From NCBI GenBank assembly GCA_004524535.1, contig SDNY01000056.1, positions 1 to 22,500 on the forward strand: 22,500 nt of DNA, written 5' to 3'. The notes beneath the pieces were generated by a model. The model did not search any database, was not told the origin of the DNA, and saw only the letters and a program-made list of their open reading frames with translations. Position 1 is the first letter of the stretch; the number at the start of each line of letters is the position of its first letter. The translations under genes were made by a program, and so were the position numbers. The stretch comes from Promethearchaeota archaeon (GTDB lineage Archaea > Asgardarchaeota > Lokiarchaeia > Sigyniarchaeales > SOKP01). This document shows positions 1 to 16,771 of this stretch, one piece after another.

Positions 1-348
1 GGTATGCGACAAGCAGGAATAATCGCTTCTTTTGGTTTAGTAGCTCTTGAACCAAAATGGATTAAAAGACTCGAGGAAGACCATAAAAATGCAAAATTAC
101 TTGCCGAAGGAATTGAAAATTTGGATCTTCCTATTAAAATTCAAAAACCTGATACCAATATACTTATGATATCTCTCCCCCAGGATATACGTATAATTAA
201 AGTAATTACTGCTCTTAATAAAGAAGGAATTTTAGCTTTTAATATAGATAAGCAAAGAATCCGTTTTGTTACTCATTATGGGATAAATGAAGATGACATT
301 CAGCATAGTATCAAAAGAATTGGAGAAGTTTTGAGAAAATTTTTGTAA
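1..348 (+). CDS. ltaE: Low-specificity L-threonine aldolase, C-terminal part (5' end outside window)
   Basis: Frame is open from base 1. GMRQAGIIA...RLEEDHKNAKLLAEGI...DTNIL...IRFVTH matches the C-terminal motifs of the LtaE/GLY1 PLP family (GGGMRQAG, RLxEDH, TN, RFVTH). Confidence 0.85.
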   Translation, partial: GMRQAGIIASFGLVALEPKWIKRLEEDHKNAKLLAEGIENLDLPIKIQKPDTNILMISLPQDIRIIKVITALNKEGILAFNIDKQRIRFVTHYGINEDDIQHSIKRIGEVLRKFL

Positions 349-444: not shown

Positions 445-1323
445 TTATTTTTGTGAAATTATTTGAATTTGATTACCAAAAATGTGTGGTTTTAATATTA
501 GATTCAAAATTCTATCAAATCTTTGAAATTTTATTCCAATTTTTTTGATTTTTTTGTTAAAAAATTTAAAAACATAAGAGAGAGTTTGTTTATAGTAGTT
601 TATTTTAATTATTTTAAATTTATTTTGTTTGAGAAGCTGTATATATTGGAAGTTTTTCAAAGCTTTCTCTTCTGGAGTTATCCATCCTTTTAAAATGGCG
701 TATTTTCTTAATAAATTAAACTCTTGGATTAGTGGATTTTGAATAATCCACCTAAGAGGGAAATTAAAATTTGGCTCGAATAGGAGTAATAAACCATCTT
801 CTTTTAAGACTCTAAATGCTTCTTTTATAACAATATCCATGAAGTTTAGCGGGAGATGATGTAATAAAAACTGGATGTGTGCAATATCAAAAGACTCAGA
901 CGGAAAATTCAGTTTTTCAGCAGAACAGATAGAAAAACAGTTTTTTAGACCAAATTTTTCATGTAAAATCTTATTGTTTTCAATAGTTTCTGGGGATATA
1001 TCTATTCCAACTGCTTCATTTCCAGAAAGAACCCAGTATGTGACATAATGACGATTTCCACACCCAATATCTATAATTTTCTTGTTTTTAACTTTACCAA
1101 TTAAATTTTCCCACCAAAAAGATTTTTTCATTCTCCTTAAAAATGAGTGCTTGCTAATATTTTTCCTTAGTCCTATACTATATCTATCCCAAAAAATTCT
1201 CTCTTTTATTTTATTACTGTTTCTTATAAAGTATATCTTTTTTTTCATTCTACACAAAATTGAATGGTTGTTAACATTTTTATATCTTTTTTTCAAATTT
1301 TCCGTACAAGAATCCGATATCAA
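445..1323 (-). CDS. Class I SAM-dependent methyltransferase (true start may be the ATG at 1248)
   Basis: Motif I IIDIGCGN, GIDIS, SAEKLNFPSESFDIA, LLHHL and EAFRVLKEDGLLLLFEPN are typical Methyltransf_11 motifs. Very AT-rich sequence. Confidence 0.85.
   Translation of the reverse strand: MISDSCTENLKKRYKNVNNHSILCRMKKKIYFIRNSNKIKERIFWDRYSIGLRKNISKHSFLRRMKKSFWWENLIGKVKNKKIIDIGCGNRHYVTYWVLSGNEAVGIDISPETIENNKILHEKFGLKNCFSICSAEKLNFPSESFDIAHIQFLLHHLPLNFMDIVIKEAFRVLKEDGLLLLFEPNFNFPLRWIIQNPLIQEFNLLRKYAILKGWITPEEKALKNFQYIQLLKQNKFKIIKINYYKQTLSYVFKFFNKKIKKIGIKFQRFDRILNLILKPHIFGNQIQIISQK
1124..1282. repeat. Degenerate ~42-nt direct repeat, two copies 117 nt apart, at the 5' end of the methyltransferase
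   Basis: 1124-1165 tttttcattctccttaaaaatgagtgcttgctaatatttttc vs 1241-1282 tttttcattctacacaaaattgaatggttgttaacattttta (about 33/42 identical by hand). Encodes KNISKHSFLRRMKK and KNVNNHSILCRMKK in the same frame. Confidence 0.6.
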
Positions 1324-1426
1324 ATTATATTTGTTAGCTTTTATTCTTCAAACACTAATATGAATTTGGATTTAACTTTAACATGAATTTTGTTAATAAA
1401 ATAAAAATAAAAAAAATAATAGGATT

Positions 1427-3277
1427 TTATATTCCTAATTCATCTAATTTTTCTTTAGTGGGCCAGCCGGTTTCCCAATCCCAACCTCGGAATTGATAAT
1501 AAGTCTTTAAGTTATCTTCTAAATCAACTTTAATCCCAGCTGAACCTCCGGTTTCTAGTGCTTCAGTAACAATTTTAGGTAAATAATCATCCTCTCTTTT
1601 GCATCCAAGCTTGCAAGAGATCAATCTTTTAAGATTTGTAGCTCTTTCGCCTGCTAAAAACAGTTTTTTCTTATTTCCCAAAGAAGAAAATCCAGTAGCG
1701 ACTTTAAGTAATTTCGTTAGAATCGATATGTTAATATGGGGGAAATTACAAATAACTGCGGAATCGAAAATATTACATATATCTTGCAAATTAGCAACTG
1801 AATCTTCCCTGCCATCAATATTAAAACGGTCATCTTTTTTTACTTTCATGAGTGAAGCAGCATCACCATCAATATTAAAGAAATCCCCTTTTTCATGACT
1901 AGCTCCAATACAGCAAGTCATATAAGTTAACGCTTGTCCAAGGTAGGCTCTAGGATCATGCATAGGAATTTCTAATCCCTTTACATGTGCTGCTAAATCG
2001 GGGTCGACACCTAATTTTTCAGCCATAGTTCTTACTCCTTCTGCTAAAATATCTCCTATACCGTCTCTCTTAATAATTTGATTAAGAAGTTTTAAAACTA
2101 CATCCTCATTTCCCCATTTTAATTCTTGTAGTTTAATATCGGTCAAGTATTTGGAAATATTATCAATAGAAATCTTATTTTCAGCCAGATAAATTAAGAA
2201 TGATATTGAAACTCCACTAGAAATAGTATCAATCCCCTCGAGATTACATATATGATTTGCTTTAAGGATAGATTTAAAGTCTAAAATTCCACACATTGGA
2301 CCAAAAGCAGCAGTTGTTTCGTATTCAGGACCATCAATTTCAACTTCTTTCCCATCTATTTCAGCAATTGTAACCTTCCCGCAACCGATGGTACATCCTG
2401 CACAGGCATATTTCAAAACAGGATATTGTTCTTTTAAAGCTTTTCCCGTCAATCGTTCAGCGATAAATTCAGTATTTGTAAAATAATTCGCAGGAACGTC
2501 AGCTAAGACCATTCCCATATCAGTATAACATAAAGTGCCATGATTACTGAAAAATTGTGATGCGAATGCGTTCATTATATTTTTTATAGAGTTTCTTCCA
2601 GTGGTTGCTAGTGTTTCTTTATCAGCATATTCAATTGATTGCCCTCCTTTAACAGCTATTGCTTTTAACTTTTTTTTGCCCATCAGTGCTCCCAAACCAC
2701 AACGACCAGCGGCTCTCCCTTCATCATTAATAATGGCAGCGTATTTTACTAAGTTCTCACCACCCTTCCCTATGCAAGCTATGCGGATTCTATTTTCGTT
2801 AAGATTAGTTCTAATTGTCTCGATTGTTTCTCGAGTATTTTTTCCCCAAATATCATTCGCATCTTTAATTTCAATTTGCCCTTCATTAATAACTATATAT
2901 TTTGGCTGATCAGCTTCTCCAGTTATAACTAAAGCATCAAATCCAGATCTCTTTAAAGCTATGGGAAGAAAACCTCCTGATGTAGCTTCTCCCCAAATGC
3001 CCGTCAAGGGTGATATCCCTGCTACAGAATATCTACTACTGGAGGGGGTAGCTGTTCCTGTTAATGGTCCCGTTGCAAAAACAAGAGGATTAACATTTGC
3101 TAAGGAATCATTTTTTAGAATTTCATAAGCCCCTTCCGAAAGTAAATCATAAATGAGTTTTGCTGATAACCCCACGCCTCCAATATATGCCTCTGCTATA
3201 GTAGGATCTAAATCTTTAATCTCAACTTTTAATTGGTTTAAATCAATATAAGCAATTTTTCCATTATATCCTAACAT
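1427..3277 (-). CDS. aor: Aldehyde:ferredoxin oxidoreductase (tungstopterin AOR family)
   Basis: 616 aa. GYNGKIAYIDL, SPLTG..GEATSGG, GRAAGRCGLGALMGKKKLKAIAV, 4Fe-4S ligands CAGCTIGC plus a distal Cys (AVICNF), GPEYET, CNLEGIDTIS, HVKGLEIPMHDPR, YYQFRGWD. Confidence 0.95.
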   Translation of the reverse strand: MLGYNGKIAYIDLNQLKVEIKDLDPTIAEAYIGGVGLSAKLIYDLLSEGAYEILKNDSLANVNPLVFATGPLTGTATPSSSRYSVAGISPLTGIWGEATSGGFLPIALKRSGFDALVITGEADQPKYIVINEGQIEIKDANDIWGKNTRETIETIRTNLNENRIRIACIGKGGENLVKYAAIINDEGRAAGRCGLGALMGKKKLKAIAVKGGQSIEYADKETLATTGRNSIKNIMNAFASQFFSNHGTLCYTDMGMVLADVPANYFTNTEFIAERLTGKALKEQYPVLKYACAGCTIGCGKVTIAEIDGKEVEIDGPEYETTAAFGPMCGILDFKSILKANHICNLEGIDTISSGVSISFLIYLAENKISIDNISKYLTDIKLQELKWGNEDVVLKLLNQIIKRDGIGDILAEGVRTMAEKLGVDPDLAAHVKGLEIPMHDPRAYLGQALTYMTCCIGASHEKGDFFNIDGDAASLMKVKKDDRFNIDGREDSVANLQDICNIFDSAVICNFPHINISILTKLLKVATGFSSLGNKKKLFLAGERATNLKRLISCKLGCKREDDYLPKIVTEALETGGSAGIKVDLEDNLKTYYQFRGWDWETGWPTKEKLDELGI

Positions 3278-3292
3278 CTTTTCATATTCCTC

Positions 3293-4603
3293 CTATTTAT
3301 AAAACAACTCCATTATATCATCTAATTTATTTTCATATGCTATCTCATACATCCATCGTATTGTTGGCGGATCAAGCTTTCGAGTGGAAGATAATGTTGT
3401 ATAGTCATCAAATGCATATTCCACCATTTGATCCATTTTACTCATATATTCTTCACGAGAAATTTTAGGTTTTTCAAGTTCACTGATGGATAATGGGCAT
3501 CCTACTAATTTCATAAATGCTCTTAATTTTTCCAGTAATTCTCTTAAAATTTCGTCTCGTTGTCTACCTTCTATTTTAATTTTAAAAACTTTAGCAAGAT
3601 CTTTAAATCTATCTGTGGCTTTCGATTGAAAAGCAAGGGATATACTAAGATACAATGCTACGCAAACTCCATGATGAGCATGAAATAAGGCACCAAAAGA
3701 ATGCCCTAAACCATGTTCAACCCCTCCTGAAACATTTCCAAAACCTATTCCAGCAATATATGATCCTAATTGCATCTTTGAACGCGCTTCAAGATCATTT
3801 CCACGTTTTATTGCGCGAGGTAAATAATCTAAGATCATTTGAATTGCCTTAAGATTATTAATGTCAGTATATTCAGTACTCATAGTTAAGACATAAGATC
3901 CCATAGCATGTGCTAATGCGTCCATTCCGGTTCCCATAGTTAAATATGGTGGCATTGTTTTTACAAAATCAGTATGTAATACCACAAAATCAGGACAAAG
4001 CTCATATAAAACAACTTCCGTCTTTTTAGGAGGTTCTCTATCTGTATCAGTTACAACTGCTATAAATGTTGTTTCAGATCCTGTGCCGCTAGTAGTTGGA
4101 ATTGCCGCTAAAATGTACACTTTTTTCCTAAGCCCTAAGTACGAGGGGGCCATTAGATTATTTAAATTTATTTCGGGTTTTTCATATAATAACAAAATCA
4201 TTTTAGCTGTATCCATTGCTGAGCCTCCCCCAATAGCTATTATTGCTTTTGGGTCATATTCATTACAAACCTCAACTGCTTCCATTACAGTGGATCTTGG
4301 AACTTCAGGCAACACATTTGAAAAAATTCTTGAATCGATTTGTTTCATGGTCTTTAATGTTTCTGCAACTTTTTCTCCGAATTTTGGTAAATCTTTATCA
4401 ACAACTAATAATACCCGTTTATCCTCTGCTGATAAAAAGCTACCTAGGTGATTTGCAAAATCTATTAGACTATTCGTTCCAGTAAAGGTTGTCTTTGGAG
4501 AAACTATTGGGCCGTGGTAATTCCTCATCGCATTAGACGACGCCTTGATATATAACGATTTCAAGGATTCCGTCTCATACCAAGCTTTTTGTTGGCTTCC
4601 CAT
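3293..4603 (-). CDS. Iron-containing (type III) alcohol dehydrogenase
   Basis: GGGSAMDTAK, PTTSGTGSET, and metal ligands DALAH / EHGLGH / HHG. Stop codon lies 15 nt before the aor start, so probably one operon. Confidence 0.93.
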   Translation of the reverse strand: MGSQQKAWYETESLKSLYIKASSNAMRNYHGPIVSPKTTFTGTNSLIDFANHLGSFLSAEDKRVLLVVDKDLPKFGEKVAETLKTMKQIDSRIFSNVLPEVPRSTVMEAVEVCNEYDPKAIIAIGGGSAMDTAKMILLLYEKPEINLNNLMAPSYLGLRKKVYILAAIPTTSGTGSETTFIAVVTDTDREPPKKTEVVLYELCPDFVVLHTDFVKTMPPYLTMGTGMDALAHAMGSYVLTMSTEYTDINNLKAIQMILDYLPRAIKRGNDLEARSKMQLGSYIAGIGFGNVSGGVEHGLGHSFGALFHAHHGVCVALYLSISLAFQSKATDRFKDLAKVFKIKIEGRQRDEILRELLEKLRAFMKLVGCPLSISELEKPKISREEYMSKMDQMVEYAFDDYTTLSSTRKLDPPTIRWMYEIAYENKLDDIMELFYK

Positions 4604-4680
4604 ATTTTTATTTTCACTTCCTTTTGTTATAATAAGATATATTTTATACTATCTAAAATGATATACTAGTATTTATTTTA

Positions 4681-4696
4681 ATGTGATTTTTCACAT
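4681..4696. promoter_or_regulatory. Palindrome ATGTGA-N4-TCACAT upstream of adh-aor; candidate operator
   Basis: Perfect 6-bp arms, about 78 nt upstream of the adh ATG, in the 125-nt intergenic region. Confidence 0.4.
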
Positions 4697-4728
4697 ACCA
4701 CAAAGAAAAATATTTAAAACTAAATGTT

Positions 4729-5838
4729 TTAATTCGTCGCAATTTTTTTCAGAGGAATAAACACATCTCTCGGACCTATTCTTTCTAGATGTATGGCTTC
4801 CTCAGGACAAAGATGTGCGCACACGCCGCATCCTATGCATAATTCTTCATTTACTGTTGCGATTGAATCCTCTAAATCAATTGCTTCCAAAGGACACTTC
4901 TCTACGCATGTCCCACAGCCCACACAATCCTCTTCATTCACTCTCGATATGTAAGAACTAATTGTATGTAGTGGTAACACACCTCGATGATACATCCCCA
5001 GAATACCGCAACAACATTTGCAACAATTACATATTGCTTCAATGCCTTTTTTGGGATCGGAATGTATATGAAAAACTTTATGAACAAGACCATAATCTTC
5101 AGCTTCCCTAAAGATTTTCATTGCGTCCTCTTTTGAAATAGGACTTGCAAAGTTACGTTCAATAGCAAATTTAGCGGATTTATCAAAAAGAAAGCAATTC
5201 AATTTTGGAGCGCCTAATTTGCAGGGATCATTAAGAAGATCATGTTGGTGTCTACAATAACAATGCGCAACAGCAATATTATTTTCTTCTTTTTCATAAT
5301 CTTCTAAATATTTTTCTATTTCTTCATAGGGTAACACTACTTCTTGCGGTATCTCCACTTCCTTTTCAACTGGAACGGTTCTATCAACTGCAGGCACTTG
5401 CTTAAATAATTTTGAAACAGACTCATAATTTTTTTGAGATTGAGTGCCTAATTCATCAAATAATTTGTCTGCTAATTCTGCTACTTTTTTATGTTTATCA
5501 TCAGTTAATCCTTTCAATAGCGAATATTCAAAAATTCCGGGGTACGGACCCATAAGACGATAAACCATAATGCCAGTGTTTCTACTTGGAGATCCTAAAA
5601 CTATTCCATTATCCATTAATGCGTTCAACATTTTAAGTATTGCTTCTTTATTCATATCTGTTTTTGCTTTTATCTGCTCCAAAGTTAATGTTGGCTTTTT
5701 ATAGATTAAAAGAAATTTAGCTTGCTCTTCTGTAATTACTGTTTGAAGAAATTCAATCAAAGTATCCGTTATAGGAAAAGGAAAAGCTCCTGCCTTTACA
5801 ATGGTTCTTGCGACTTTATACCATAACTTTTCAGACAT
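4729..5838 (-). CDS. Cys-rich iron-sulfur protein with N-terminal HTH-like region and C-terminal 2x[4Fe-4S] ferredoxin domain
   Basis: Central CYCR..C..C..ICNCCKCCCG cluster; C-terminal CVGCGTCVEKCP and CIGCGVCAHLCP; N-terminal TLEQIKAKT..LNALMDNGIV looks like a winged helix. Confidence 0.88.
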   Translation of the reverse strand: MSEKLWYKVARTIVKAGAFPFPITDTLIEFLQTVITEEQAKFLLIYKKPTLTLEQIKAKTDMNKEAILKMLNALMDNGIVLGSPSRNTGIMVYRLMGPYPGIFEYSLLKGLTDDKHKKVAELADKLFDELGTQSQKNYESVSKLFKQVPAVDRTVPVEKEVEIPQEVVLPYEEIEKYLEDYEKEENNIAVAHCYCRHQHDLLNDPCKLGAPKLNCFLFDKSAKFAIERNFASPISKEDAMKIFREAEDYGLVHKVFHIHSDPKKGIEAICNCCKCCCGILGMYHRGVLPLHTISSYISRVNEEDCVGCGTCVEKCPLEAIDLEDSIATVNEELCIGCGVCAHLCPEEAIHLERIGPRDVFIPLKKIATN

Positions 5839-6068
5839 TATAATTAACTATTTTTATTATATTATTTTCAAAATTAAACTACATAAAATAAAATTACATA
5901 ATTTATTTAAATTGGGACAAGAATTCAAAAACATTTTTTTCCCAAAAAAACTAGCTTTTTAGACATATAATTTTTATAATGCGTCGTTTTTAAAATTTAA
6001 ATATTAATGTGTTTAATAATTTATCATTAACTTAATTATTCAAAATAAATATAAAATCGTGATTAAAA

Positions 6069-6962
6069 ATGTCAGACGAGTTATCAGATAAATTGGTTAT
6101 TAGTGCCGCGTTAGCTGGCGCAGCAACGGTGAAATCTCAAAATGAAAATGTTCCATACACAGCAGAAGAATTTGGGAACGAAGCAAAAAAATGTTACGAC
6201 GCAGGAGCTTCAATTGTTCATATCCACGCCAGAGACCCAGAAAAAGGAAATCCTACCCATGAATTGGATATTATAAAAGCTGTAATAGATGCAATTAAAG
6301 AACGTGCCCCCGGAATTCTTATAAATCTAAGTACTGCAATTTCTCAGGTTGCAACTGAGAAACAAAGAATAAAACCTGTTGAAACATATAAACCACCTCT
6401 CTGCTCACTAAATACAAATTCTATGAACTTTAGTGTAGGCGACCATAAAACTGGGCAAGTGTTACTTGCCCCCACAATGGTTTTTATGAACAATTTCTCA
6501 ATGATTCAAAAGTTTGCTAAAAGAATGAAAAAAGCTCGGTCAAAACCGGAAATAGAAGTGTATGACATGGGAGGTCTTTATAATATCCTTTTCCTTAATA
6601 AACAAGAAGGTTTATTCGATCAACCGCTTCACTTCCAATTTGTATTTGGAGTGCTAGGAGGGATTCCATTTTCCTACCAAAATCTAGCTAGTCTTTTAGC
6701 TCTAAAACCCCCTGATGCTACTTGGAGTGTATGTGGTGTAGCAAAAGATCAGTTTCGAGCAGGAATGTGCGCTTCCGTAATGGGAGGTCATATAAGGGTG
6801 GGTTTAGAAGATAATATCCGAACTATTGATGGTGCATTGGCTAAAGGTTCTTATGAGCAAGTAGAGTGGGCAGCTAAAGTTGCTAAAATAGCAGGACGAG
6901 AAGTAGCTACTCCAGCAGAAGCGGCAGAGATCTTCCATCTACATAAAACAGATGTATATTAA
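6069..6962 (+). CDS. BKACE / DUF849 family beta-keto acid cleavage enzyme (3-keto-5-aminohexanoate cleavage enzyme homolog)
   Basis: ISAALAGA..NENVPYT, Zn ligands HIHARD, KPEIEVYD, FQFVFGV.GG, catalytic HIRVGLEDN, GREVATPAEA. Confidence 0.93.
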   Translation: MSDELSDKLVISAALAGAATVKSQNENVPYTAEEFGNEAKKCYDAGASIVHIHARDPEKGNPTHELDIIKAVIDAIKERAPGILINLSTAISQVATEKQRIKPVETYKPPLCSLNTNSMNFSVGDHKTGQVLLAPTMVFMNNFSMIQKFAKRMKKARSKPEIEVYDMGGLYNILFLNKQEGLFDQPLHFQFVFGVLGGIPFSYQNLASLLALKPPDATWSVCGVAKDQFRAGMCASVMGGHIRVGLEDNIRTIDGALAKGSYEQVEWAAKVAKIAGREVATPAEAAEIFHLHKTDVY

Positions 6963-6982
6963 GAAGCTTTAATTTATTTCAA

Positions 6983-6991
6983 TTTTTTTTT
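6983..6991 (+). terminator. Oligo-T (T9) archaeal-type terminator after the BKACE gene
   Basis: T9 run 20 nt after the stop codon, followed by further T-rich sequence. Confidence 0.5.
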
Positions 6992-7208
6992 ATTTCTTTT
7001 AATAAAATAACATTTATATTTCTCTGAATAAGTATAACTAATTTTAACAATTTGAGTGTTCTCATGTTATAAGTTTTTTATTTTTTTCACTTTTAAATAA
7101 AGATCCAAAAGATGCATATTTTTATTTGAAAGATATATATCATAGAATGTAAAATATTATTCATTAAAAAAAAATAGATATCTAAAAAAAATAAAAGTGT
7201 GAAAGACA

Positions 7209-7685
7209 TTGACATTAAATATAGATGAAGAGCAGGATGTATCTGTCACAAAAGGTATGATACGTGCTGAATTTAACTTTTGGGTCGGAATTGTCATGGA
7301 TAAATTCTATGATGGACTTCAAGAGAAAAAATTTATAGGTACTAAATGCTCTAAATGTGGAAAAGTTTTTCTACCGCCTAGAAATAGATGTGGAGATTGC
7401 TTTGCGAAGGCTGAGGATTTTATTGACTTACCTGAAACTGGTATACTAAAGAATTTTACTGTAACGACTTATAAAATATCTGAGCGAAAAACAAGAAACG
7501 TGAAAAAAGATCAGATCGTAGGATTGGTCCAAATTGATGGAGCAGATAGCGCTATGGTTGTACCAGTTATAAATATAAATCCAGAAGATTTGAAAATAGG
7601 TATGAAATTAAAAGTAGTATGGGCAAAAAATATAAAAGGAGATCCCAATGATATTGCGGGATTTGAGCCAATAGGAGGCGTTTAA
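7209..7685 (+). CDS. DUF35 / ChsH2-C-like Zn-ribbon + OB-fold acyl-CoA-binding protein
   Basis: KFYDGL..IGTKCSKC-x10-CGDC, G.LKNFTV, GLVQIDGAD, LKIGMKLKVVW. TTG start. Ends 2 nt before the next gene. Confidence 0.92.
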   Translation: MTLNIDEEQDVSVTKGMIRAEFNFWVGIVMDKFYDGLQEKKFIGTKCSKCGKVFLPPRNRCGDCFAKAEDFIDLPETGILKNFTVTTYKISERKTRNVKKDQIVGLVQIDGADSAMVVPVININPEDLKIGMKLKVVWAKNIKGDPNDIAGFEPIGGV

Positions 7686-7687
7686 AA

Positions 7688-8818
7688 ATGGATAAAGTAG
7701 CAATAGTAGGTTTTTATCAAGTTAAACCTGGATTAGACTTAATGATGAGCCCTTATGAAATGCTTTTTGAGGCAACAAGAGGGGCATTAGATCATGCTGG
7801 ATTAAAGAGAGACGATTTATCCACCGTAATTGGATGCAATAACGATTATTATGATGGTAAAACTATTTCAAATTGTTTTAAAGTAGAAGCGGGTGGTGCC
7901 TACATGAAGGATGAAAGTAAAGTTGAGATGGATGGGGCTCATGCTGTAATGTATGGACTAATGAGGATCTTATCAGGAAATCATAAATTAGCAATGGTGT
8001 ATGGTATTAGTGCGCCTTCTTGTTTTCCATACGAATCTGTTAGAATTTTAGAAACTGATCCTACGTTCGATCGACCAATCAATCTTTTAAATGGATATAC
8101 CGCAGGGGGAATGCAGATGAGGGCTTATTTAAATGCTTTTGGGCTTTCAGAAGAAGATATCGCTAAAGTTGCTGTATATAATTTAAAAAATGCCGCAAAA
8201 AATCCTTTAGCAATACCAGAAGCTCAAAAAACTAACATAACTGTTGATGAAGTATTAAATTCTGAAATGTTGAGTGCTCCTTTGAAAAAATTAATGTATC
8301 CTATTCTATGTGATGGCGTGACAGCCTTAATTCTTGCTCCAGAAAGGCAGGCTCGTAAAATAACAGATAAACCTGTATGGATTACTGGTGTAGGACACTT
8401 TAACGACACATATTATTTGGGTGATAGAGATTTAAGTAGTTGTTCTTCAATGGAAAAAGCCGCAGAGAAAGCTTATAAAATAGCCGGAATAAATAATCCA
8501 AAAAGCGAAATTAATGTGGCTGAACTCTTTGGACATACTGCCTGTGAAGATTTGATTCTAGCTGAAGCTGCAGGGTTGGCCGATAAAGGAAAAGGCTTAT
8601 CTTTAATTGACACTGGGAAACTTAATCCTTCAGGAGGAACAATGGCAGGATATACTCCTGCTGCAAATGGTTTAACGAGGATTGTAGAGGCTGTGAAACA
8701 AATTCGAGGTGAAGCAGAGGGACATCAAATATCGGGGGCTAATAAAGCAATTGCTTCAGGGCAAGTTGGCTTTTGTGCTCAAAATAATATTGTATATGTT
8801 TTAGAGGGAGGTGAATAA
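7688..8818 (+). CDS. Thiolase-fold protein, Ltp4-like (no nucleophilic Cys); putative retro-aldolase subunit
   Basis: VAIVGF, DYYDG, ESKVEMDGAHA, ETDP, CDG, PVWITG, LGDRDL, NPSGG and C-terminal QNNIVYVLEG recall actinobacterial Ltp4 (ESHVEMDAAWA, QQNLVAVMEG; recalled, not aligned). RBS GGAGG at 7674-7678. Confidence 0.85.
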   Translation: MDKVAIVGFYQVKPGLDLMMSPYEMLFEATRGALDHAGLKRDDLSTVIGCNNDYYDGKTISNCFKVEAGGAYMKDESKVEMDGAHAVMYGLMRILSGNHKLAMVYGISAPSCFPYESVRILETDPTFDRPINLLNGYTAGGMQMRAYLNAFGLSEEDIAKVAVYNLKNAAKNPLAIPEAQKTNITVDEVLNSEMLSAPLKKLMYPILCDGVTALILAPERQARKITDKPVWITGVGHFNDTYYLGDRDLSSCSSMEKAAEKAYKIAGINNPKSEINVAELFGHTACEDLILAEAAGLADKGKGLSLIDTGKLNPSGGTMAGYTPAANGLTRIVEAVKQIRGEAEGHQISGANKAIASGQVGFCAQNNIVYVLEGGE

Positions 8819-8823
8819 TAAAA

Positions 8824-10068
8824 ATGGCTAATGTACAACCAGCAGTAATAAGTGCTGGTTTTTGTGAACATGCATCAAAACGTTCTGATGTAAATATGGC
8901 TGAATTGGTAAACGAAGCTGTTGAAGATTGTTTAAATAAAGCTGGATCTGTTGAATGGAAAGATATTGATTATGTGATAAATGGTAATATGCCTGCTTTT
9001 GAGGGTGCTAATATGCCAGAATTATGGATGACAGATCATATGGCTGCTAAAAATAAACCCCTTTTAAGGGTTACAACAGGTGGAACTACTGGCGGCTCAG
9101 TATTTGTCTCAGGCTACTATGCCGTCGCTTCGGGATTATATGATATGGTTTTAGCGGTTGCTTTCGAACAACAATCCTGCGGGAATACTACAGTAGGATT
9201 AGCTTCTGTGGCATTAGGCGAATTATCTATTTACCCTAGTTTAGGTTATGAAGCCACCAGATTAAGAAGAAATATGGGTGCTGGTGCTGCTATTGGTGTT
9301 GCATCATACCAGGCGATGAATTATATGAGAAGAAGTAAAGCTACTGAAGAAGATTTAGCCCGCGTTGTTGTACAAAATAGAAGAAATGCCGCAAAAAATT
9401 GGTGGACCCATCTAAAGATGCCAACTATTACAATTGAAGATGTGTTAGATACACCGTACATTTCATATCCTTTAAGATTTGGGATGGTATGTCCTGCATC
9501 CGATGGGGCCTGTGCTGTATTATTTACAACCGAAGAAAAAGCAAAACAAATAGCCGATGTACCTGTATATATTAACGGCGTTGGCAGTTATGCTAATGAA
9601 CCTGCAATCATAGGCGTTGATTGTGGTGGGGCTGGGCAAACTGATCCGTGTGAACAATTAGGAGCCGTAAAATCAGCCGAACTTGCTTATAGCCAAGCGG
9701 GTATTTCTTTCCCAAATAAAGAAATCGACTATGCGGAAGTGTATTCTCCATTTCCAAATCAAGAATTGCAGTGGGTTGAAAGAGTTGGTTTATTTGAGCC
9801 AAATTCTGCTCCCGAAGCTTACTTAAATGGAGTTACTGCTCTTAATGGTGAAATGCCAGTGAACTGTTCTGGTGGAGTAAATTCTACAAACGCAATTGGT
9901 GCTTCTGCGATGGAAAGACCTGCTGAATCTGCCCTGCAAATTATGGGTAAAGCGGGAAATCAAGTTCCTAAGACTGTACACACTGCTTTAGGACATGGCT
10001 GGGGGGGCGCAATAAATTTAATAAGCCACGTTGTTATGGCAGATGAGCCACAACGTAAATTTAAATGA
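8824..10068 (+). CDS. Thiolase-fold protein, Ltp3-like (Cys to Gly; Tyr at the HDxF His position); putative retro-aldolase subunit
   Basis: KRSDVNMAELV, FEGANMPELWM, KPLLRVTTGGTTGGS, CPASDGACAV, EIDYAEVYSPF, PVNCSGGVNSTNAIGAS, ALGHGWGG recall Ltp3 (FEGVMMPELFM, AEIYVPF, NPIGAS; recalled). RBS GGAGGTGA at 8807-8814. Confidence 0.88.
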   Translation: MANVQPAVISAGFCEHASKRSDVNMAELVNEAVEDCLNKAGSVEWKDIDYVINGNMPAFEGANMPELWMTDHMAAKNKPLLRVTTGGTTGGSVFVSGYYAVASGLYDMVLAVAFEQQSCGNTTVGLASVALGELSIYPSLGYEATRLRRNMGAGAAIGVASYQAMNYMRRSKATEEDLARVVVQNRRNAAKNWWTHLKMPTITIEDVLDTPYISYPLRFGMVCPASDGACAVLFTTEEKAKQIADVPVYINGVGSYANEPAIIGVDCGGAGQTDPCEQLGAVKSAELAYSQAGISFPNKEIDYAEVYSPFPNQELQWVERVGLFEPNSAPEAYLNGVTALNGEMPVNCSGGVNSTNAIGASAMERPAESALQIMGKAGNQVPKTVHTALGHGWGGAINLISHVVMADEPQRKFK

Positions 10069-10083
10069 GGTGTTAAAAAAAAA

Positions 10084-10602
10084 ATGCCATTACCAGAATA
10101 TATCAAGAAGGATTACAAAAGAACAAGAACAATGAAGGGAAGCTGGTATTTAACGAGTTACAAATACAAATTCAATTTATCACGGATTAAAGAGTATTTA
10201 AAAGGACTTAAGAATGGAATACTTCTTGGATTAAAATGTAGATCATGTAATACCGTCTCTTTCCCTCCAAGACTGATTTGTGGGAGATGTTTAGTAAAAC
10301 CAGATCAATGGGTTCGATTACCTGAAACTGCTTCAATAGCGACTGGTTCTGCGAACTACGACGAAGAAGATAAAAAAAGAGAACATCCCTTTCCAGTAAT
10401 AGCCGTTCGCCAAGATGGTGCGGATACTGCATTAATCCATAACATTTCTGACGATGTTGATTTTAATTCGATTTATATAGGAATGCCATTAAAAGTCGTA
10501 TGGGCTAAAGAAAGAAACGGTTTATATTTGGATATCGATCATTACGAGCCAATAGAAGACCCAGCAATCGAACTGAACAAAAAAGAAGGAAGCGTCGATT
10601 AA
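10084..10602 (+). CDS. DUF35 Zn-ribbon + OB-fold protein
   Basis: YLKGL..ILLGLKCRSC-x10-CGRC, VRQDGADT, IGMPLKVVW. RBS GAGGTG at 10067-10072 overlaps the upstream TGA. Confidence 0.92.
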   Translation: MPLPEYIKKDYKRTRTMKGSWYLTSYKYKFNLSRIKEYLKGLKNGILLGLKCRSCNTVSFPPRLICGRCLVKPDQWVRLPETASIATGSANYDEEDKKREHPFPVIAVRQDGADTALIHNISDDVDFNSIYIGMPLKVVWAKERNGLYLDIDHYEPIEDPAIELNKKEGSVD

Positions 10603-10625
10603 ATAATAATAATAATAATAATAAT
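10602..10625 (+). repeat. (AAT)8 microsatellite immediately after the stop codon
   Basis: Eight perfect AAT units. Confidence 0.9.
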
Positions 10626-10626
10626 A

Positions 10627-10700
10627 TTTTTTTTTATATTTCTTTTTCTTGGTAATAAATCTTATAAAAAAAGATTAAAAAAAGAAAAGTTTTTTAAATT
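10627..10700. terminator. Convergent termination region (T-tracts on both strands)
   Basis: T9 at 10627-10635 on +; A-runs around 10666-10688 read as T-tracts on -. Lies between convergent operons. Confidence 0.5.
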
Positions 10701-10702
10701 AT

Positions 10703-11305
10703 TTAGAATGTAAAACCATCTGGTAGATCTGATTCTTTAGTTCCTTCAGCTACAAACATTAAATCCATTATTGTATATGTTGGGCTTTTAGTCCTAAAAA
10801 TTGGGATTATTTTTTTTCCAATTTCAGGTTCTCCAACCGAAAGAACGCTCATCAAGATCGTTACGACTTCCTCATCAAATTCAACATTCACGAATTTAAT
10901 TGGTTTTGGAAGTGTATTAAAGGCACCCGACCTCTCTGTAATAATGAATGAATGGATTTTAGCAGTTTTTCGAGCTTTTTCAGTAATATCTACGGGTTTA
11001 GCTTTTCTAAGACAATCAGGACAATAGATTCTAAATGGTTCAAAAATCGATCCTTTAGAATCACATTTTTCATTATCACATCTAGAAGCCATAAGCTTTC
11101 CCTTACCGAGAGATTCGAAGAATATTGCCTCACCACCATAAGAATGAATATAGGTCATATCTCTTGGGTTAGTCACACCAGCTAATTTTCCAGTATCTTT
11201 ATTAAAAATTGGCTGATTTTTTTCAATAACATGGAATGTTCCTCTTGGTTTGTATCTACCATTAACGACATCCACATATCCTTTTTCATCATCTGTTTTT
11301 GGCAT
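10703..11305 (-). CDS. DUF35-like Zn-ribbon + OB-fold protein with N-terminal extension
   Basis: HSYGGEAIFFESL..LMASRC-x4-C-x13-CPDC, IHSFI, FVNVEF, PEIG..IIPIF. Starts 4 nt after the thiolase stop, with a GGAGG RBS. Confidence 0.85.
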   Translation of the reverse strand: MPKTDDEKGYVDVVNGRYKPRGTFHVIEKNQPIFNKDTGKLAGVTNPRDMTYIHSYGGEAIFFESLGKGKLMASRCDNEKCDSKGSIFEPFRIYCPDCLRKAKPVDITEKARKTAKIHSFIITERSGAFNTLPKPIKFVNVEFDEEVVTILMSVLSVGEPEIGKKIIPIFRTKSPTYTIMDLMFVAEGTKESDLPDGFTF

Positions 11306-11309
11306 TTTT

Positions 11310-12731
11310 TTAGTCCTCCTTTAATAATTTATTCGGATTCATTAAAATTGTACATGTTACATGGGAACCTACACCGGCATGGCTTATTGCTAAACCACGG
11401 TTTGCATCCTTTACTTGTAAGCTCGTCCAATCAGAGGGCTTTTCTCGTCCAAAAGCATCCCATTTTTCTTGGGGTTCATGGATTTCATCCCATCGATTCC
11501 AGATATGATATCCAATTTCGGCAATCTGCATTAATCCTGTCGCTCCTACTGCATGCATACAACCAATCAAACCACCAGAAGGATTGCTTGGTAATGCCCC
11601 TGGTTTATTTGTATTTGGATTAATTACATATGCATCACCAGACTCTATATAATCTCTTCCCTGTCCATAGGGGCGGATACCTATATCTTCATATGTTTGG
11701 ATATCACTTATTGTAAATGCATCATGGAGCTCCACAACATCAAGATCATCAGTGGGATCAACCACACCAGCCATACGATAAGCATACCATGCAGCCATTC
11801 GAGCAGCCAAGAAACCAGTAAATCCAGGATATCTGTCTGCACCAGGGAATTCTTTTGCTAAATTATCATATTGTCCTGGTTTTTCATTAGGTAAGAGTGG
11901 GATCTTCATATTTCTTCGATCAGCAACTCTCAATGTATGACTGCCTGCTGCGATATAAATTCTAAGAGGGTTATTAGTAATCTCATATGCTGTTTTTTCA
12001 TCACATACAATGCCACATGCAGCTCCAACGCTCATTAAACAACAATCGAGCGCACGGAGAGGTGCTGCTACTATCGGAGAGTTAATCACATCATCTACTG
12101 TTATCTTCATTGGACCATGAGCATGTGGGTTCATTCTCGCATAACCACGATTTTTAACGGCTACTTCTGCCATAGTTTTCCTGAAAGATTCCTCTTCCTT
12201 TCCAAAAATTTTCCAATATCTTTGAGCCATTACAGCATAATACCCTGTGTAAATGTGCCCCAATGGTGTTTCCCAATCCTTATCAGCCGCACAAGATATA
12301 AGATGATTCCCTTCATCAGTTGGAACTTCATCCATTCTTTCCCATCCTAAAGCAAGTGCACAATCACTATATCCTGAAGCAACTGCCTTAACAGCTTCCC
12401 ACATAGCGGATCCTCCTGTTGCTCCACCTGTCTTCACACCAATAGTTCCCAATGGATCAAGACCTAATCTATCATGGATTACAGCTTCTCCTAATAATTG
12501 ATCACCAAAATGATCAGCAAAATGTCCATAATAACACGTGTGAATGTAACTCTTTAACTCCGCAGGAGTCATGTTAACAAAATCGCTAGCAGCAGTTAAT
12601 GCATCAATACATAATTCTTCTGTTCTTGTCTCCGGAAACGCACGATCAAATTTTGACATTCCAACTGTCGCTAAATATACTGGTCTCATCAGTTTAGGTA
12701 TTTTTAACTGTTTCTCACTAAATTTTATCAT
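11310..12731 (-). CDS. Thiolase-domain protein of the archaeal GGATGG subfamily (PRK06365-like), lacking the nucleophilic Cys
   Basis: DHFGDQLL, GVKTGGATGGSA, YTGYYAVMA, LDCCLMS, PLLPNE, ELHDAF, IQTYED, NPSGGLIGCMHAVGATG, SHAGVG. Confidence 0.9.
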   Translation of the reverse strand: MIKFSEKQLKIPKLMRPVYLATVGMSKFDRAFPETRTEELCIDALTAASDFVNMTPAELKSYIHTCYYGHFADHFGDQLLGEAVIHDRLGLDPLGTIGVKTGGATGGSAMWEAVKAVASGYSDCALALGWERMDEVPTDEGNHLISCAADKDWETPLGHIYTGYYAVMAQRYWKIFGKEEESFRKTMAEVAVKNRGYARMNPHAHGPMKITVDDVINSPIVAAPLRALDCCLMSVGAACGIVCDEKTAYEITNNPLRIYIAAGSHTLRVADRRNMKIPLLPNEKPGQYDNLAKEFPGADRYPGFTGFLAARMAAWYAYRMAGVVDPTDDLDVVELHDAFTISDIQTYEDIGIRPYGQGRDYIESGDAYVINPNTNKPGALPSNPSGGLIGCMHAVGATGLMQIAEIGYHIWNRWDEIHEPQEKWDAFGREKPSDWTSLQVKDANRGLAISHAGVGSHVTCTILMNPNKLLKED

Positions 12732-12800
12732 TTTTTTTCACATTTAACTCATTTTCATAGATATAATTTAATATTGATTACATTTTATGATTATAAATAA

Positions 12801-12862
12801 TATTGAGTTTTGTTTCATATTAATTTTATAAATTTCTATATCTATTATTGAGTTATGTCAAT
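12801..12862. promoter_or_regulatory. Repeated TATTGAGTTWTGT motif and ATTGA-N6-TCAAT inverted repeat in a divergent promoter
   Basis: tattgagttttgt at 12801-12813 and tattgagttatgt at 12846-12858. The second copy extends to ATTGAGTTATGTCAAT (12847-12862). Confidence 0.4.
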
Positions 12863-12934
12863 TTATTTATGCTTAAATTGATTTTTTAACTTAGAATTAA
12901 ATATTTATAATTTAAAATTTAAAATTGAGGTATT

Positions 12935-14269
12935 ATGGACACTAGACTAAGAGATTTTGAAGAAATTAGAATTCAAAAATATGTACCTGAATTAGACCTA
13001 TTAGCAAATCCTTTACTTACTCCTCAAGAGAAAGAATTTTTATCGGATTTTTACGATTTTTTAGAAAGAGATCTTGATAAAGATTTAAAGATGTTAGAGG
13101 AACTCGATTATTTCGTTGAGGAACCTACTCAAGAGAAAAAAAAAGAAATTGTTATTAAAATTTTAAAGAAGTTAGCTGATAACGGTTATTATAGCACAAT
13201 TCTGAACGATGAAGATTTTGAAGTTGGAAGAATTACGAGAAATGTACTTATCGCTTATGCATTATGTGGGGGGAGATGGAGTGAGTCGAGCGAACGATAT
13301 GTTGCAGGAAATTATAGTGTCGAAATGGGACGTCTTGCAGGAGGGACATTATATTGTAATCCAGTCAATTATAGAGCAACTGAGCAACAAAAAGAAAGAT
13401 TTCTATATCCCGTTGCCAAAGATGGGGCTCCTGCGTCATCAGCCATGACTGAATTTAATGCTGGAAGCGATATATCAAGAATGGAATTAAATATTCAATT
13501 AAAGGATGATAAAGCAATTCTTAAAGGTAAAAAAGTCTTTATTACAAATGGCATGTTCGCTGATTATATAATTGTCTATGGAAGAATAAACAATGGTCCC
13601 TTAGGAGCTATTATAGTTGATACTGAACATCAACAATTAAGGGATTTTAAATCAGCTAGAATAAGAACTTATGGAATGACTGATGCTTTCGTATGTAGAT
13701 TGAACTTTGATAGAGTAGAACAGCCTATAGAGAATATGCTTCATGGAAATGGATTAGATATCGCATTTCACCAGCTAACAGAAGAAAGATTAGTTATTAG
13801 CGCTGAAGCTTTAGGAGATGCTATGAAAAAGCTTTTATATTCTCATACATATGCACTTCATCGTAGACAATTTGAGAGGCGTTTGCATGAATATCAAGTT
13901 ATAAGATTCCCAATCTCTAAAAACATAAGGGAAATGAATTTATTAGTTTCTACATTGATAAATTATGCAAGAGAGTTAGATCGACGACCAGAACTTGCGA
14001 ATTCTAAATTAATGGCAGCTCAAGCAATGGGACTTAAAATATCTAGTACAGAGCTTGGTTTCGAAAGTGCAATACATTGCTTCAGGACAATGGGCGGTCG
14101 CGGGTTCATTAGGCAATATTCCAATCCAATTGGATTACTCGACCCTTACTGTATGATTCATGGTGGGGGGTCCAATTATGTGCTCGAAGATAGTGAATCA
14201 AGAAGATACTTCAAGTATAAACCCACAAGAAGAGAAATTGAGGATATTATCCCCAGAATTGATTTATAA
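12935..14269 (+). CDS. Acyl-CoA dehydrogenase family protein
   Basis: AMTEFNAGSD, LKGKKVFITNG, LTEERL, RRQFERRLHEYQVI, MGGRGF, IHGGGSN. GAGGT just upstream of the ATG. Confidence 0.92.
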   Translation: MDTRLRDFEEIRIQKYVPELDLLANPLLTPQEKEFLSDFYDFLERDLDKDLKMLEELDYFVEEPTQEKKKEIVIKILKKLADNGYYSTILNDEDFEVGRITRNVLIAYALCGGRWSESSERYVAGNYSVEMGRLAGGTLYCNPVNYRATEQQKERFLYPVAKDGAPASSAMTEFNAGSDISRMELNIQLKDDKAILKGKKVFITNGMFADYIIVYGRINNGPLGAIIVDTEHQQLRDFKSARIRTYGMTDAFVCRLNFDRVEQPIENMLHGNGLDIAFHQLTEERLVISAEALGDAMKKLLYSHTYALHRRQFERRLHEYQVIRFPISKNIREMNLLVSTLINYARELDRRPELANSKLMAAQAMGLKISSTELGFESAIHCFRTMGGRGFIRQYSNPIGLLDPYCMIHGGGSNYVLEDSESRRYFKYKPTRREIEDIIPRIDL

Positions 14270-14459
14270 GTGTTTTTCTTACTTTCATTTTTATTTAAAA
14301 TTATTACTTTATAAATTATTAAATAGATCTTCTTAATTTAGTGATAAAAAGGTTAATATTTATTATAATTAAAAAATTAATATTAAAACGAGAAAAATTA
14401 ATAGAGTAATTATAAATGCTATAACATGAAATTTCAATTAAAACCTTAAAGTTGAGATT

Positions 14460-16688: not shown

Positions 16689-16771
16689 CTTATTCTAAAA
16701 AAATTTTTTATTGTTATTATAAATCATCAGAGAATTGATTTTTAAATAATTTTTTTTAATTATTATAAACA

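Follow-up and report, generated by a model that had tools for sequence, protein, structure and literature searches.

The stretch of DNA analysed here (the window) is the entire 22.5-kb contig SDNY01000056.1 (C146) of a Promethearchaeota archaeon genome (3.66 Mb, 99% complete), in which genes were called from a listing of open reading frames (ORFs) and then scanned with Pfam and NCBIfam profiles. Between positions 1427 and 14269 it encodes three thiolase-fold proteins that lack the catalytic cysteine (TLP1, TLP2 and TLP3), each accompanied by a DUF35 protein. Four genes on the plus strand form a tight run: DUF35a, a Zn-ribbon/OB-fold partner (7209-7685), the Ltp4-like TLP1 (7688-8818), the Ltp3-like TLP2 (8824-10068) and DUF35b, the second Zn-ribbon/OB-fold partner (10084-10602), with gaps of 2, 5 and 15 bp. 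Converging on this run from the minus strand are TLP3 (11310-12731, 473 aa) and its partner DUF35c, a divergent Zn-ribbon/OB protein of 200 aa (10703-11305), 4 bp apart. The flanking genes encode an acyl-CoA dehydrogenase (ACAD) family protein, divergent from TLP3 (12935-14269, plus strand), and, 246 bp before DUF35a, a beta-keto acid cleavage enzyme (BKACE) family protein (6069-6962, plus strand). Divergent from BKACE over a 230-bp spacer is a minus-strand unit encoding an Fe-S protein (4729-5838), an Fe-containing alcohol dehydrogenase (Fe-ADH, 3293-4603) and, 15 bp further, an aldehyde:ferredoxin oxidoreductase (AOR) family protein (1427-3277). All of these genes had been named by an initial annotation made from the sequence, and the ORFs and Pfam matches place them where it did. 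That annotation took them for one pathway. On balance we favour a composite locus, consisting of an aldol or retro-aldol core module (the four-gene run), a sub-cluster of TLP3-DUF35c, ACAD and BKACE, and a separate cassette of Fe-S protein, Fe-ADH and AOR.

The loss of the thiolase cysteine is clear in all three proteins. In alignments with the solved thiolases 6esq, 7yvy and 4yzo, the nucleophilic Cys is replaced by Gly in TLP2 and TLP3, and the corresponding loop of TLP1 is shortened and has no Cys: the ‘AACASG’ motif of 6esq and 7yvy aligns to TGGATGG in TLP3, TTGGTTGG in TLP2 and EMDGAHA in TLP1. The loss is also seen against the 12 Cys-bearing thiolase paralogues of the same genome. None of the three thus has the xxCxSG nucleophile of thiolases, nor the combination of the HDCF Cys and the GHP His, which are replaced by YSPF and Asn in TLP2 and by FGHT and Tyr in TLP1; TLP3 reads HDAF and keeps the His. 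Since the nucleophile is Gly, these proteins cannot be ordinary thiolases, an activity that would have contradicted the earlier proposal. The genome encodes 17 thiolase-fold ORFs, of which five are Cys-less: TLP1, TLP2, TLP3, a paralogue of TLP3 on contig C58, and an ORF of 387 aa on contig C184 (6014-7189, minus strand). The latter has Pro at the nucleophile position, keeps HDAF and GHP, and groups in the tree with a Bathyarchaeia protein (locus L028).

The initial annotation had treated the three proteins as equivalent aldolases. A tree of 85 thiolase-fold proteins and the table of their motifs, together with alignments of 24 orthologues each for TLP1 and TLP2, separate them into three distinct types (only thiolase-fold ORFs of at least 330 aa entered trees and motif tables, which left out four of the 75 locus ORFs). 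TLP2 is the best conserved, with a mean column identity of 82% over its 24 orthologues. These read ‘VTTGGTTGG’, ‘Y(S/A)PF’ and ‘STNAIG’, and the resulting Gly/Tyr/Asn (G/Y/N) signature is invariant in the 24 aligned sequences; L026 alone among the orthologues departs from these motifs, at the Asn position. The Tyr, Pro and Asn align to the His, Cys and His of the HDCF and GH motifs in the SCP2 thiolase 4bi9, and the former active site has the invariant polar residues Tyr307, Asn356, Glu115, Gln117 and His196. In a library of 1.84 billion representatives we found 88 TLP2 relatives at E ≤1e-30. Of the 28 best full-length 50%-identity representatives, 26 carry the signature, as do 33 of the 113 full-length ones (at least 340 aa) among the best 150, and it persists down to about 36% identity. 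Clusters of Promethearchaeota, Actinomycetota, Spirochaetota and Chloroflexota are among the language-model look-alikes of TLP2. This pattern of invariant polar residues and of a signature kept to about 36% identity argues for catalysis by TLP2, which is probably the catalytic subunit.

According to passages of PMC12329534, from which we took the motif equivalence, Ltp2 has YDHF and Sal YDCY in place of the HDCF motif, with the Tyr as the essential catalytic base. At this position only TLP2 has a Tyr (Tyr307); TLP1 has Phe, which varies among its orthologues, and TLP3 has His. The active site of TLP1 seems to have decayed. Its nucleophile loop is shortened to ‘VEMD--G’, its orthologues show at least ten different tetrapeptides at the HDCF position (FGHT, FEHF, SEAF, HTQF and others), and the His position is occupied by Y, F, N, M, H or D. 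Yet TLP1 has an invariant loop, ‘NDYYDGKTISN’, and as judged from these alignments it is probably a non-catalytic structural partner. It was recognised by a match to Thiolase_C_1 (69.5 bits). TLP3 is different again: it has lost both Cys and has no Tyr, keeps both oxyanion-hole His (HDAF, CMHAVG), and scores slightly under the cut-off of NF004982 (PRK06365; 668.6 bits against 695).

The closest known counterpart of the four-gene run comes from actinobacteria. A search of plasmids with TLP2 retrieved operons of Tsukamurella and Streptomyces where a double-DUF35 gene (309-339 aa) is followed by thlA (354-359 aa) and thlB (388-390 aa). The thlB product is 38.7% identical to TLP2 and shares its G/YVPF/N residues, the thlA product is 30% identical to TLP1 and shares its ‘EMD’ loop, and both halves of the double-DUF35 protein match DUF35a and DUF35b. 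ThlA passes the NCBIfam cut-off of NF005924 (PRK07937, ‘lipid-transfer protein’; 593 bits against 419) and ThlB that of NF006180 (PRK08313; 734 bits against 514). In the tree, TLP2 and ThlB (PRK08313) form a clade of 30 proteins with a support of 1.0, the grouping of TLP1 with ThlA is weak (0.45), and the Cys-less types together make a clade (support 0.988) separate from the Cys-bearing SCP2-type thiolases. The Tsukamurella operon is flanked by genes for an AMP-ligase, an enoyl-CoA hydratase (crotonase) and a nitronate monooxygenase (NMO) family protein, and the Streptomyces operon has an acyl-CoA synthetase annotated nearby. From family, size and context, the plasmid genes appear to be orthologues of the named Ltp3 and Ltp4. 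The plasmid gene order is also that of Mycobacterium tuberculosis, where parts of PMC6429209 place Rv3521 (a conserved hypothetical protein), ltp4 (Rv3522) and ltp3 (Rv3523) close to fadD19 and echA19. The window has the gene order of this type (a small and a large Cys-less paralogue side by side, together with two DUF35 domains), its clade and its signature. The four-gene module is thus probably the archaeal counterpart, subunit for subunit, of the actinobacterial [double DUF35]-Ltp4-Ltp3 system.

The Zn ribbon and OB fold that define DUF35 proteins (PF12172 and PF01796) were matched by Pfam profiles in DUF35a (zf-ChsH2, 40.7 bits; OB_ChsH2_C, 28.6 bits) and in DUF35b (zf-ChsH2, 34.1 bits), the OB-fold match of the latter (21.8 bits) being under its cut-off. 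The Zn-ribbon cysteines of DUF35a (C47, C50, C61 and C64) are invariant in an alignment of 33 sequences. DUF35c had no significant Pfam match (OB_ChsH2_C, E 0.09) and was recognised only when compared by hhalign with a DUF35 profile built from 33 proteins (probability 95.4%, E 1.8e-8, 136 columns). The pairing of every thiolase-fold gene with a DUF35 gene, as first annotated, therefore holds, in the third case by profile comparison only. DUF35c has 1035 homologues, named ‘Zn-ribbon domain-containing OB-fold protein’, of which the best 120 are of about 200 aa and 75-97% identical. Given this number we considered TLP3-DUF35c as a pan-Asgard housekeeping pair, and rejected the idea because, of 121 genomes sampled across the phylum, no more than 7 have a TLP3 orthologue. 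DUF35a, DUF35b and DUF35c are stand-alone proteins of 158-200 aa, and Pfam found no MaoC domain in the window; the locus hence does not have the MaoC-DUF35 arrangement of the Ltp2/Sal type.

A fold model of TLP1 with TLP2 is consistent with a heterodimer. It reached an ipSAE of 0.91 (0.91, 0.94 and 0.86 in three runs; best control 0.00), a mark attained by 58 of 80 solved complexes and by 2 of 110 mismatched pairs, with a partner pLDDT of 87 and at least 90% of the contacts common to the runs. The invariant loop of TLP1 (52-64) is modelled in contact with the TLP2 loop 75-87, which includes the TTGG motif and the former nucleophile position. The result supports a TLP1-TLP2 heterodimer, although resemblance to solved thiolase dimers may explain the score; because such dimers have already been solved, the model is a sign of likeness and not proof. 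ORFs of 498-500 aa in L025 and L026 suggested a DUF35a-TLP1 fusion, but these are artefacts of ORF calling: the in-frame stretch upstream has no DUF35 likeness, and DUF35a is read in a different frame.

We compared 26 loci orthologous to the module (TLP2 identity 67-98%) by tblastn and by clustering all their ORFs; L027 (Dehalococcoidia) and L028 (Bathyarchaeia, 25% identity) were left out of the counts. DUF35a, TLP1, TLP2 and DUF35b are complete and collinear in 23 of them, cut by a contig end in one and incomplete in two. The whole arrangement between 1427 and 14269 recurs only in L001, a 98%-identical relative. The four genes are therefore a conserved core, and the 12.8-kb stretch is not one conserved unit. 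TLP2 orthologues were found in 13 of the 121 sampled genomes, mostly of the window's own family, as were those of TLP3. These related genomes are not independent. Neighbours were counted within the fetched flanks, and the counts given below are lower bounds because five loci (L005, L012, L018, L020 and L023) lie on short contigs of 5-11 kb. Among 28 related loci found with TLP2, 21 carry the names Promethearchaeota, Hodarchaeota, Hermodarchaeota or Sigynarchaeum, the nearest being 98% identical, which confirms the probable Asgard origin proposed for this DNA. Promethearchaeota are placed in the kingdom Promethearchaeati, which we take to be the Asgard group.

Some of the related loci are unusual. 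L011 (CP070724.1), titled Thermoplasmatales archaeon, has TLP2 and DUF35b 95% and 89% identical to those of the window and lacks the upstream DUF35a and TLP1, possibly due to mis-binning, a chimeric assembly or a recent transfer. In L038 (genome G109), a Thoeris-like cassette at 609-4610 occupies the place where relatives carry a paralogous TLP2 gene (TLP2') and two DUF35 genes. Its products are a TIR protein (PADLOC ThsB, 125.7 bits), a SLOG cluster-3 protein and a ThsB_TIR protein. Only TLP1' remains of the paralogous module, which the cassette seems to have disrupted by insertion. An NCBIfam ThcB4 match in this locus had hinted at a link with defence systems. We discarded it, the ORF being the TIR protein of the inserted cassette; PADLOC gave no match for any TLP or DUF35 protein of the window.

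BKACE and ACAD recur near such modules in rearranged orders, which backs this part of the linkage noticed initially. BKACE matches PF05853 (301.3 bits) over profile positions 1-274 of 274, is below all NCBIfam equivalog cut-offs (Kce, 257 bits against 382; 3,5-dioxohexanoate transferase, 223 against 430), and is single-copy in the genome (one tblastn match). It lies near a TLP module in six of the 26 loci besides the window, and also in L038, L039 and L041. ACAD is near the module in three of the 26. It has the middle and C-terminal domains of its family (Acyl-CoA_dh_M, PF02770, and Acyl-CoA_dh_1, PF00441) and a predicted catalytic Glu, and the Pfam N-terminal ACAD domain was not matched. Its ‘LTEERLV’ aligns to the ‘ER’ of the isovaleryl-CoA dehydrogenase (IVD) 4o5m, with Gly at the MCAD-type base position, and the Glu is kept in all eight homologous loci. 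The Glu at this ‘ER’ position is presumably the catalytic base of isovaleryl-CoA dehydrogenase.

Five genomes of the window's family provided loci centred on TLP3 (L038-L042). The divergent arrangement of ACAD and the TLP3-DUF35c pair is found in four of them (L038-L041), and BKACE adjoins DUF35c in three. Beyond BKACE, these loci encode a paralogous TLP1'-TLP2'-DUF35-DUF35 module and a hydratase, with a ligase in one case. In genome G040, about 27 kb hold ACAD, TLP3-DUF35c, a TLP3-like-DUF35-SCP2 triplet, a hydratase, a ligase, BKACE, NMO and the four-gene module. The locus of this genome (L042) also encodes, between ACAD and DUF35c-TLP3, a glycyl-radical enzyme of the PFL2/glycerol-dehydratase subfamily (5010-7403, minus strand; TIGR01774, 752 bits, cut-off 678).

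The most frequent neighbours of the module are all missing from the window contig. These are an acyl-CoA ligase (11 of the 26 loci), an NMO-family, FabK-like flavoprotein (10; TIGR03151, 166 bits, cut-off 453) and the TLP3-like-DUF35-SCP2 triplet (7). A CrtI-family protein paired with a PaaE-like reductase (4, and also L039) and an enoyl-CoA hydratase (ECH, 3) recur as well. In the window genome, NMO, the triplet and a hydratase stand together on contig C58. The CrtI pair is found at L003:8235-11000 and L039:16455-19196, and also in L004, L005 and L017; it consists of a CrtI/phytoene-desaturase-family flavoprotein (TIGR02734, 147-156 bits, cut-off 238) and a PaaE-like FAD/NAD/2Fe-2S reductase. 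Pfam scans found no classical thiolase, crotonase or 3-hydroxyacyl-CoA dehydrogenase in the window, as had been noted initially; this is true of the contig only, and the genome has 14 ECH_1 and five 3HCDH_N matches elsewhere, besides its Cys-bearing thiolase-fold ORFs. The scheme proposed initially would need a hydratase, and since relatives encode ECH in the cluster, a pathway devoid of this step is not supported.

The Fe-S protein, Fe-ADH and AOR show another pattern, and the earlier claim of linkage fails for them. Each is near the module in three of the 26 loci, and none is found in L038-L042. BKACE, ACAD and several Cys-less TLP/DUF35 units thus stay together in shuffled orders, and the Fe-S protein, Fe-ADH and AOR do not stay with them. 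AOR has both domains of its family (AFOR_N, 235 bits; AFOR_C, 336 bits), and Fe-ADH has Pfam matches of 134 and 120 bits. The genome gave 12 AOR-family and five Fe-ADH matches in tblastn searches and holds three Fe-ADH-AOR pairs, one in the window and the others at C87:174-3358 and C190:2653-8049, so that a chance adjacency of these genes is not rare. An acyl-CoA ligase adjoins the pair on C190. This suggests that Fe-ADH and AOR are a reusable alcohol/aldehyde/acid cassette. Fe-ADH and AOR are lineage-specific neighbours, the whole arm being confined to near relatives, and the Fe-S protein is a neighbour that is probably outside the core. This protein has 290 N-terminal residues without an assigned family, followed by a C-terminus with two [4Fe-4S] motifs (residues 299-351). 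Residues 36-94 give weak winged-helix matches (Sulfolobus_pRN, E 0.009; TrmB, E 0.024), so that its role might be redox-sensing regulation and not electron transfer. It is present in two tandem copies in L001, has a 52% paralogue on contig C93, and its look-alikes in the atlas are bacterial clusters.

The other genes of the contig are unrelated by Pfam: a repeat-rich protein of 742 aa, an RNase-H-like protein, a glycerol-3-phosphate-dehydrogenase-like flavoprotein, a radical SAM protein and a TPR protein. The contig begins inside a pyridoxal-phosphate-dependent threonine-aldolase/GntG-like gene (1-348, plus strand), whose full-length homologue in L001 scores 363 bits with NF041359 (cut-off 230) and which also precedes the module in L004, L005 and L017. 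The 742-aa protein (14460-16688, plus strand) has no Pfam family and a homologue of 707 aa in L001. Both its ends are made of long charged runs of the pentapeptide (K/R)ERLE, encoded by tandem repeats of 15, 30 and 39 nt, with a non-repetitive region in between; the strand is strongly purine-rich at 16000-16700.

Logan contigs of four sequencing runs matched the window with small word shares (0.05-0.10) and 90-99% identity; at this identity they stem from relatives. In two runs labelled as RNA (X5 and X6) the contigs fall on AOR, Fe-ADH, DUF35a, TLP1, TLP2 and part of TLP3, with single contigs spanning DUF35a/TLP1 (7390-8466) and TLP1/TLP2 (8671-8854). These contigs show neither transcription, strand nor level, and RNA-labelled libraries can contain DNA. 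No Logan contig of the four runs falls on 13037-14300 or 5279-5709.

Gene content, loss of the Cys, signatures, synteny and homology with the actinobacterial operon are observed, and from them we infer the heteromeric architecture of the module, its chemistry, its class of substrates and its direction. The core would be a heterodimer of two Cys-less thiolase-fold proteins, each capped by one of the flanking DUF35 proteins, in which TLP2 has Gly for the nucleophile, Tyr at the site of the Ltp2/Sal catalytic base and Asn for the oxyanion His. A lipid acid would be activated by a ligase, the enoyl-CoA made by the IVD-like ACAD or by the NMO-type flavoprotein, and then hydrated by a crotonase encoded elsewhere in the genome. 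The TLP1-TLP2-DUF35 complex would cleave the beta-hydroxyacyl-CoA by a retro-aldol route, with Tyr307 as the base and no acyl-enzyme, and would release a short acyl-CoA (acetyl- or propionyl-CoA) and an aldehyde, ketone or beta-keto acid. Where the substrate has a carboxylated branch or the product is a beta-keto acid, BKACE might convert it to a CoA ester, consuming acetyl-CoA; an aldehyde could be taken over by AOR or Fe-ADH, though not obligately. TLP3-DUF35c, the IVD-like ACAD and the single BKACE would form a second sub-cluster, conserved in the family, that feeds or follows the cleavage step. The substrates are likely to be lipid chains that are branched or resist beta-oxidation for other reasons, and the SCP2 and CrtI-family neighbours suggest that they are hydrophobic and possibly isoprenoid-like. 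The retro-aldolase idea of the initial annotation is thus partly supported: for TLP2, through its Tyr and its Ltp3/Ltp4-type relatives as the literature describes them, but not for three equal aldolases.

Several observations weigh against this interpretation. The second catalytic residue is Tyr344 in Ltp2 and Cys304 (in YDCY) in Sal, and the Sal residue is Pro in TLP2. No hydratase is encoded on the window contig, and the observations are compatible with either cleavage or condensation. The AlphaFold models were too poor for inspection of the active site (pLDDT 34 for DUF35c from a single sequence, 41 for TLP2 from 24 rows). The synteny of ACAD, TLP3 and BKACE in the family extends to unrelated genes (RNase-H-like, glycerol-3-phosphate-dehydrogenase-like and radical SAM), and part of it may therefore reflect shared descent. 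TLP2 and TLP1 do not reach the NCBIfam cut-offs passed by the plasmid proteins (NF006180, 358.7 bits against 514; NF005924, 193.1 against 419), for which reason we regard them as a distant archaeal variant outside these families. The plasmid operon is taken by us to be the Ltp3/Ltp4 system of M. tuberculosis and Rhodococcus by gene order and family name, not by direct alignment. Finally, the name ‘aldol-lyase’ given to Ltp3/Ltp4 rests, in the sections of PMC6273163 that deal with it, on genetics and analogy.

We weighed the composite locus against other explanations. The reading of 1427-14269 as a single catabolic pathway, where ACAD oxidises, three equivalent Cys-less aldolases cleave, and BKACE, Fe-ADH, AOR and the Fe-S protein process the products, draws on the adjacency of all genes here and in L001 and on the divergence of the Fe-S protein/Fe-ADH/AOR unit from BKACE over a short spacer; moreover, an aldolase would yield aldehydes, the substrates of AOR and Fe-ADH. 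Other loci give it partial backing: in L002 the TLP cluster has Fe-ADH and the Fe-S protein as neighbours, L004 encodes another ADH-AOR paralogue pair (54-55% and 49% identity) some 7 kb away from the module, and L017 has the L004-type AOR, but only a 24%-identical ADH match far upstream. We nevertheless consider it unlikely, given the rarity of the three genes among the 26 loci and their absence from the TLP3-centred ones, the many AOR and ADH genes and three ADH-AOR pairs of the genome, the non-catalytic look of TLP1 and the different active site of TLP3. The Cys-less proteins and their DUF35 partners might instead be non-enzymatic scaffolds, or lipid- or acyl-CoA-binding subunits that organise other enzymes. 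According to parts of a preprint (bioRxiv 10.1101/2024.07.05.601840), DUF35 mediates the archaeal thiolase/HMG-CoA synthase and the Sulfolobus ketothiolase-reductase-dehydratase assemblies, and Asgard genomes have 3.8 thiolase/DUF35 pairs on average, which it treats as ketothiolases. The clear degeneration of TLP1 and the SCP2 lipid-carrier genes alongside TLP3-like pairs in seven loci would fit such a role. The strong conservation of TLP2, with its five invariant polar residues and far-reaching signature, and the lack of a Cys-bearing thiolase in the module make a non-enzymatic role quite improbable.

Two further explanations keep an enzymatic role and change the reaction. In the synthetic direction, acetyl-CoA would be added to an aldehyde by aldol chemistry, followed by hydratase and FabK-like enoyl reductase steps, amounting to a C2 elongation without Claisen condensation. 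The recurrent FabK-like NMO, ligase, SCP2 and ECH neighbours are compatible with it, AOR could in principle supply aldehydes from acids, and DUF35 complexes of Sulfolobus drive synthesis in the passages of bioRxiv 10.1101/2024.07.05.601840 on this organism. Yet the accessible literature ties the bacterial relatives to catabolism, ACAD and BKACE are better suited to degradation, no acyl-CoA reductase was identified and the NMO match is far under the FabK cut-off, so that we give this direction little credence. Even less credible is that the TLPs decarboxylate malonyl- or methylmalonyl-type CoA esters, like Cys-less relatives of condensing enzymes and the trypanosomal SCP2-thiolase-like protein (TbSLP). 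TLP3 does keep both oxyanion-hole His without the two Cys, and TbSLP slowly decarboxylates malonyl-CoA, but its rate is very low and PMC12329534, in the excerpts bearing on TbSLP, argues that it is an aldolase. TLP2, in turn, has lost both His, and the window has no carboxylase.

The composite reading, with a retro-aldol core, has consequences beyond this locus. Genes of this kind are usually named acetyl-CoA acetyltransferase or thiolase by automatic annotation, which the present results correct: without the nucleophilic Cys, they cannot supply the beta-oxidation or fatty-acid-synthesis capacity credited to them. Enzymes with a Cys-less thiolase fold and DUF35 are emerging as a class of C-C lyases, with known cases so far in the bacterial catabolism of steroid side chains, and the Asgard operon is a tractable system from a non-pathogen for the chemistry of Ltp3/Ltp4-type enzymes. 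Some Asgard lineages may, on the evidence of this locus, be able to process branched or isoprenoid-like acyl chains under anaerobic conditions, which bears on the handling of lipid carbon in the archaeal relatives of eukaryotes and would be of high interest if the aldol-based lipid chemistry holds. A broader scenario, to which we assign a slim chance, places TLP1-TLP2-DUF35, as a reversible acyl-CoA aldolase, in the centre of a C2 cycle of Asgard archaea that is based on aldehydes and independent of thiolase. One direction, just as speculative, would shorten beta-methyl-branched (isoprenoid-derived) acyl chains beyond the reach of ordinary beta-oxidation, BKACE recovering beta-keto acids without ATP; the other, with equally slender prospects, would extend chains without a Claisen step by means of a hydratase, a FabK-like reductase and aldehydes supplied by AOR. 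If true, the cycle would link isoprenoid-type and fatty-acid-type lipid carbon in the closest archaeal relatives of eukaryotes. Within the literature searched we found no description in archaea of the Cys-less heteromeric module, of its likeness to Ltp3/Ltp4 or of a linkage with BKACE. The original survey of the BKACE family includes only three archaeal genomes, as reported in part of 10.1101/2023.02.15.528638.

The module and its neighbours resemble several known systems. The solved archaeal DUF35-bound thiolases share the SCP2-type thiolase fold and the Zn-ribbon/OB DUF35, TLP3 matches 6esq best among solved structures (E 4.7e-35), and a solved archaeal complex likewise has two thiolase-superfamily subunits in one DUF35-stapled assembly. 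In contrast to TLP1, TLP2 and TLP3, these thiolases still have the catalytic Cys, and their chemistry is of the Claisen type. The Friedel-Crafts acylase PhlABC also has two different thiolase-superfamily subunits and a DUF35 protein in one operon, and PhlC is among the PDB matches. However, PhlC is called the active member of the superfamily (PMC2954200, in its relevant portions), the chemistry is acyl transfer to a phenol, and the identity is low. BKACE resembles Kce and its relatives by the full-length PF05853 match, although it reaches none of their equivalog cut-offs.

The initial annotation had chosen Ltp2-ChsH2 as the analogue. Ltp2-ChsH2 and Sal-Shy do share with the module the thiolase fold, the Gly in place of the nucleophilic Cys, a dimer flanked by DUF35 and the Tyr at the first HDCF position (YSPF in TLP2, YDHF and YDCY in the others). 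They differ in that Ltp2 and Sal are homodimers whose DUF35 is part of a MaoC-hydratase protein, whereas the archaeal complex is a predicted heterodimer, its DUF35 proteins stand alone and a MaoC gene is missing. The likeness of Ltp2 (6ok1) to TLP2 among PDB matches is weak (E 6e-13, rank ten), and 6ok1 is absent from the matches to the C-terminal 125 residues of TLP2. Ltp3/Ltp4 with an Rv3521-like double DUF35 fits better. Here too there are differences: the archaeal DUF35 domains are two separate flanking genes and the actinobacterial ones a single fused upstream gene, the identity is only 30-39%, the archaeal host is anaerobic and without a steroid-ring catabolic context, and BKACE and TLP3-DUF35c are extra archaeal neighbours. 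In the portions of the literature that describe them, Ltp3 and Ltp4 are called ‘putative SCP-2 aldolases’ (PMC8204306) or aldol-lyases, essential for branched (C24-branched) and not for straight sterol side chains (PMC6273163, citing Wilbrink 2012). Both systems consist of two adjacent thiolase-fold paralogues with two DUF35 domains, have Gly, Y-x-P-F and Asn in the larger subunit and an ‘EMD’ loop in the smaller one, and are accompanied by genes for an acyl-CoA ligase, an enoyl-CoA hydratase and an NMO-family protein.

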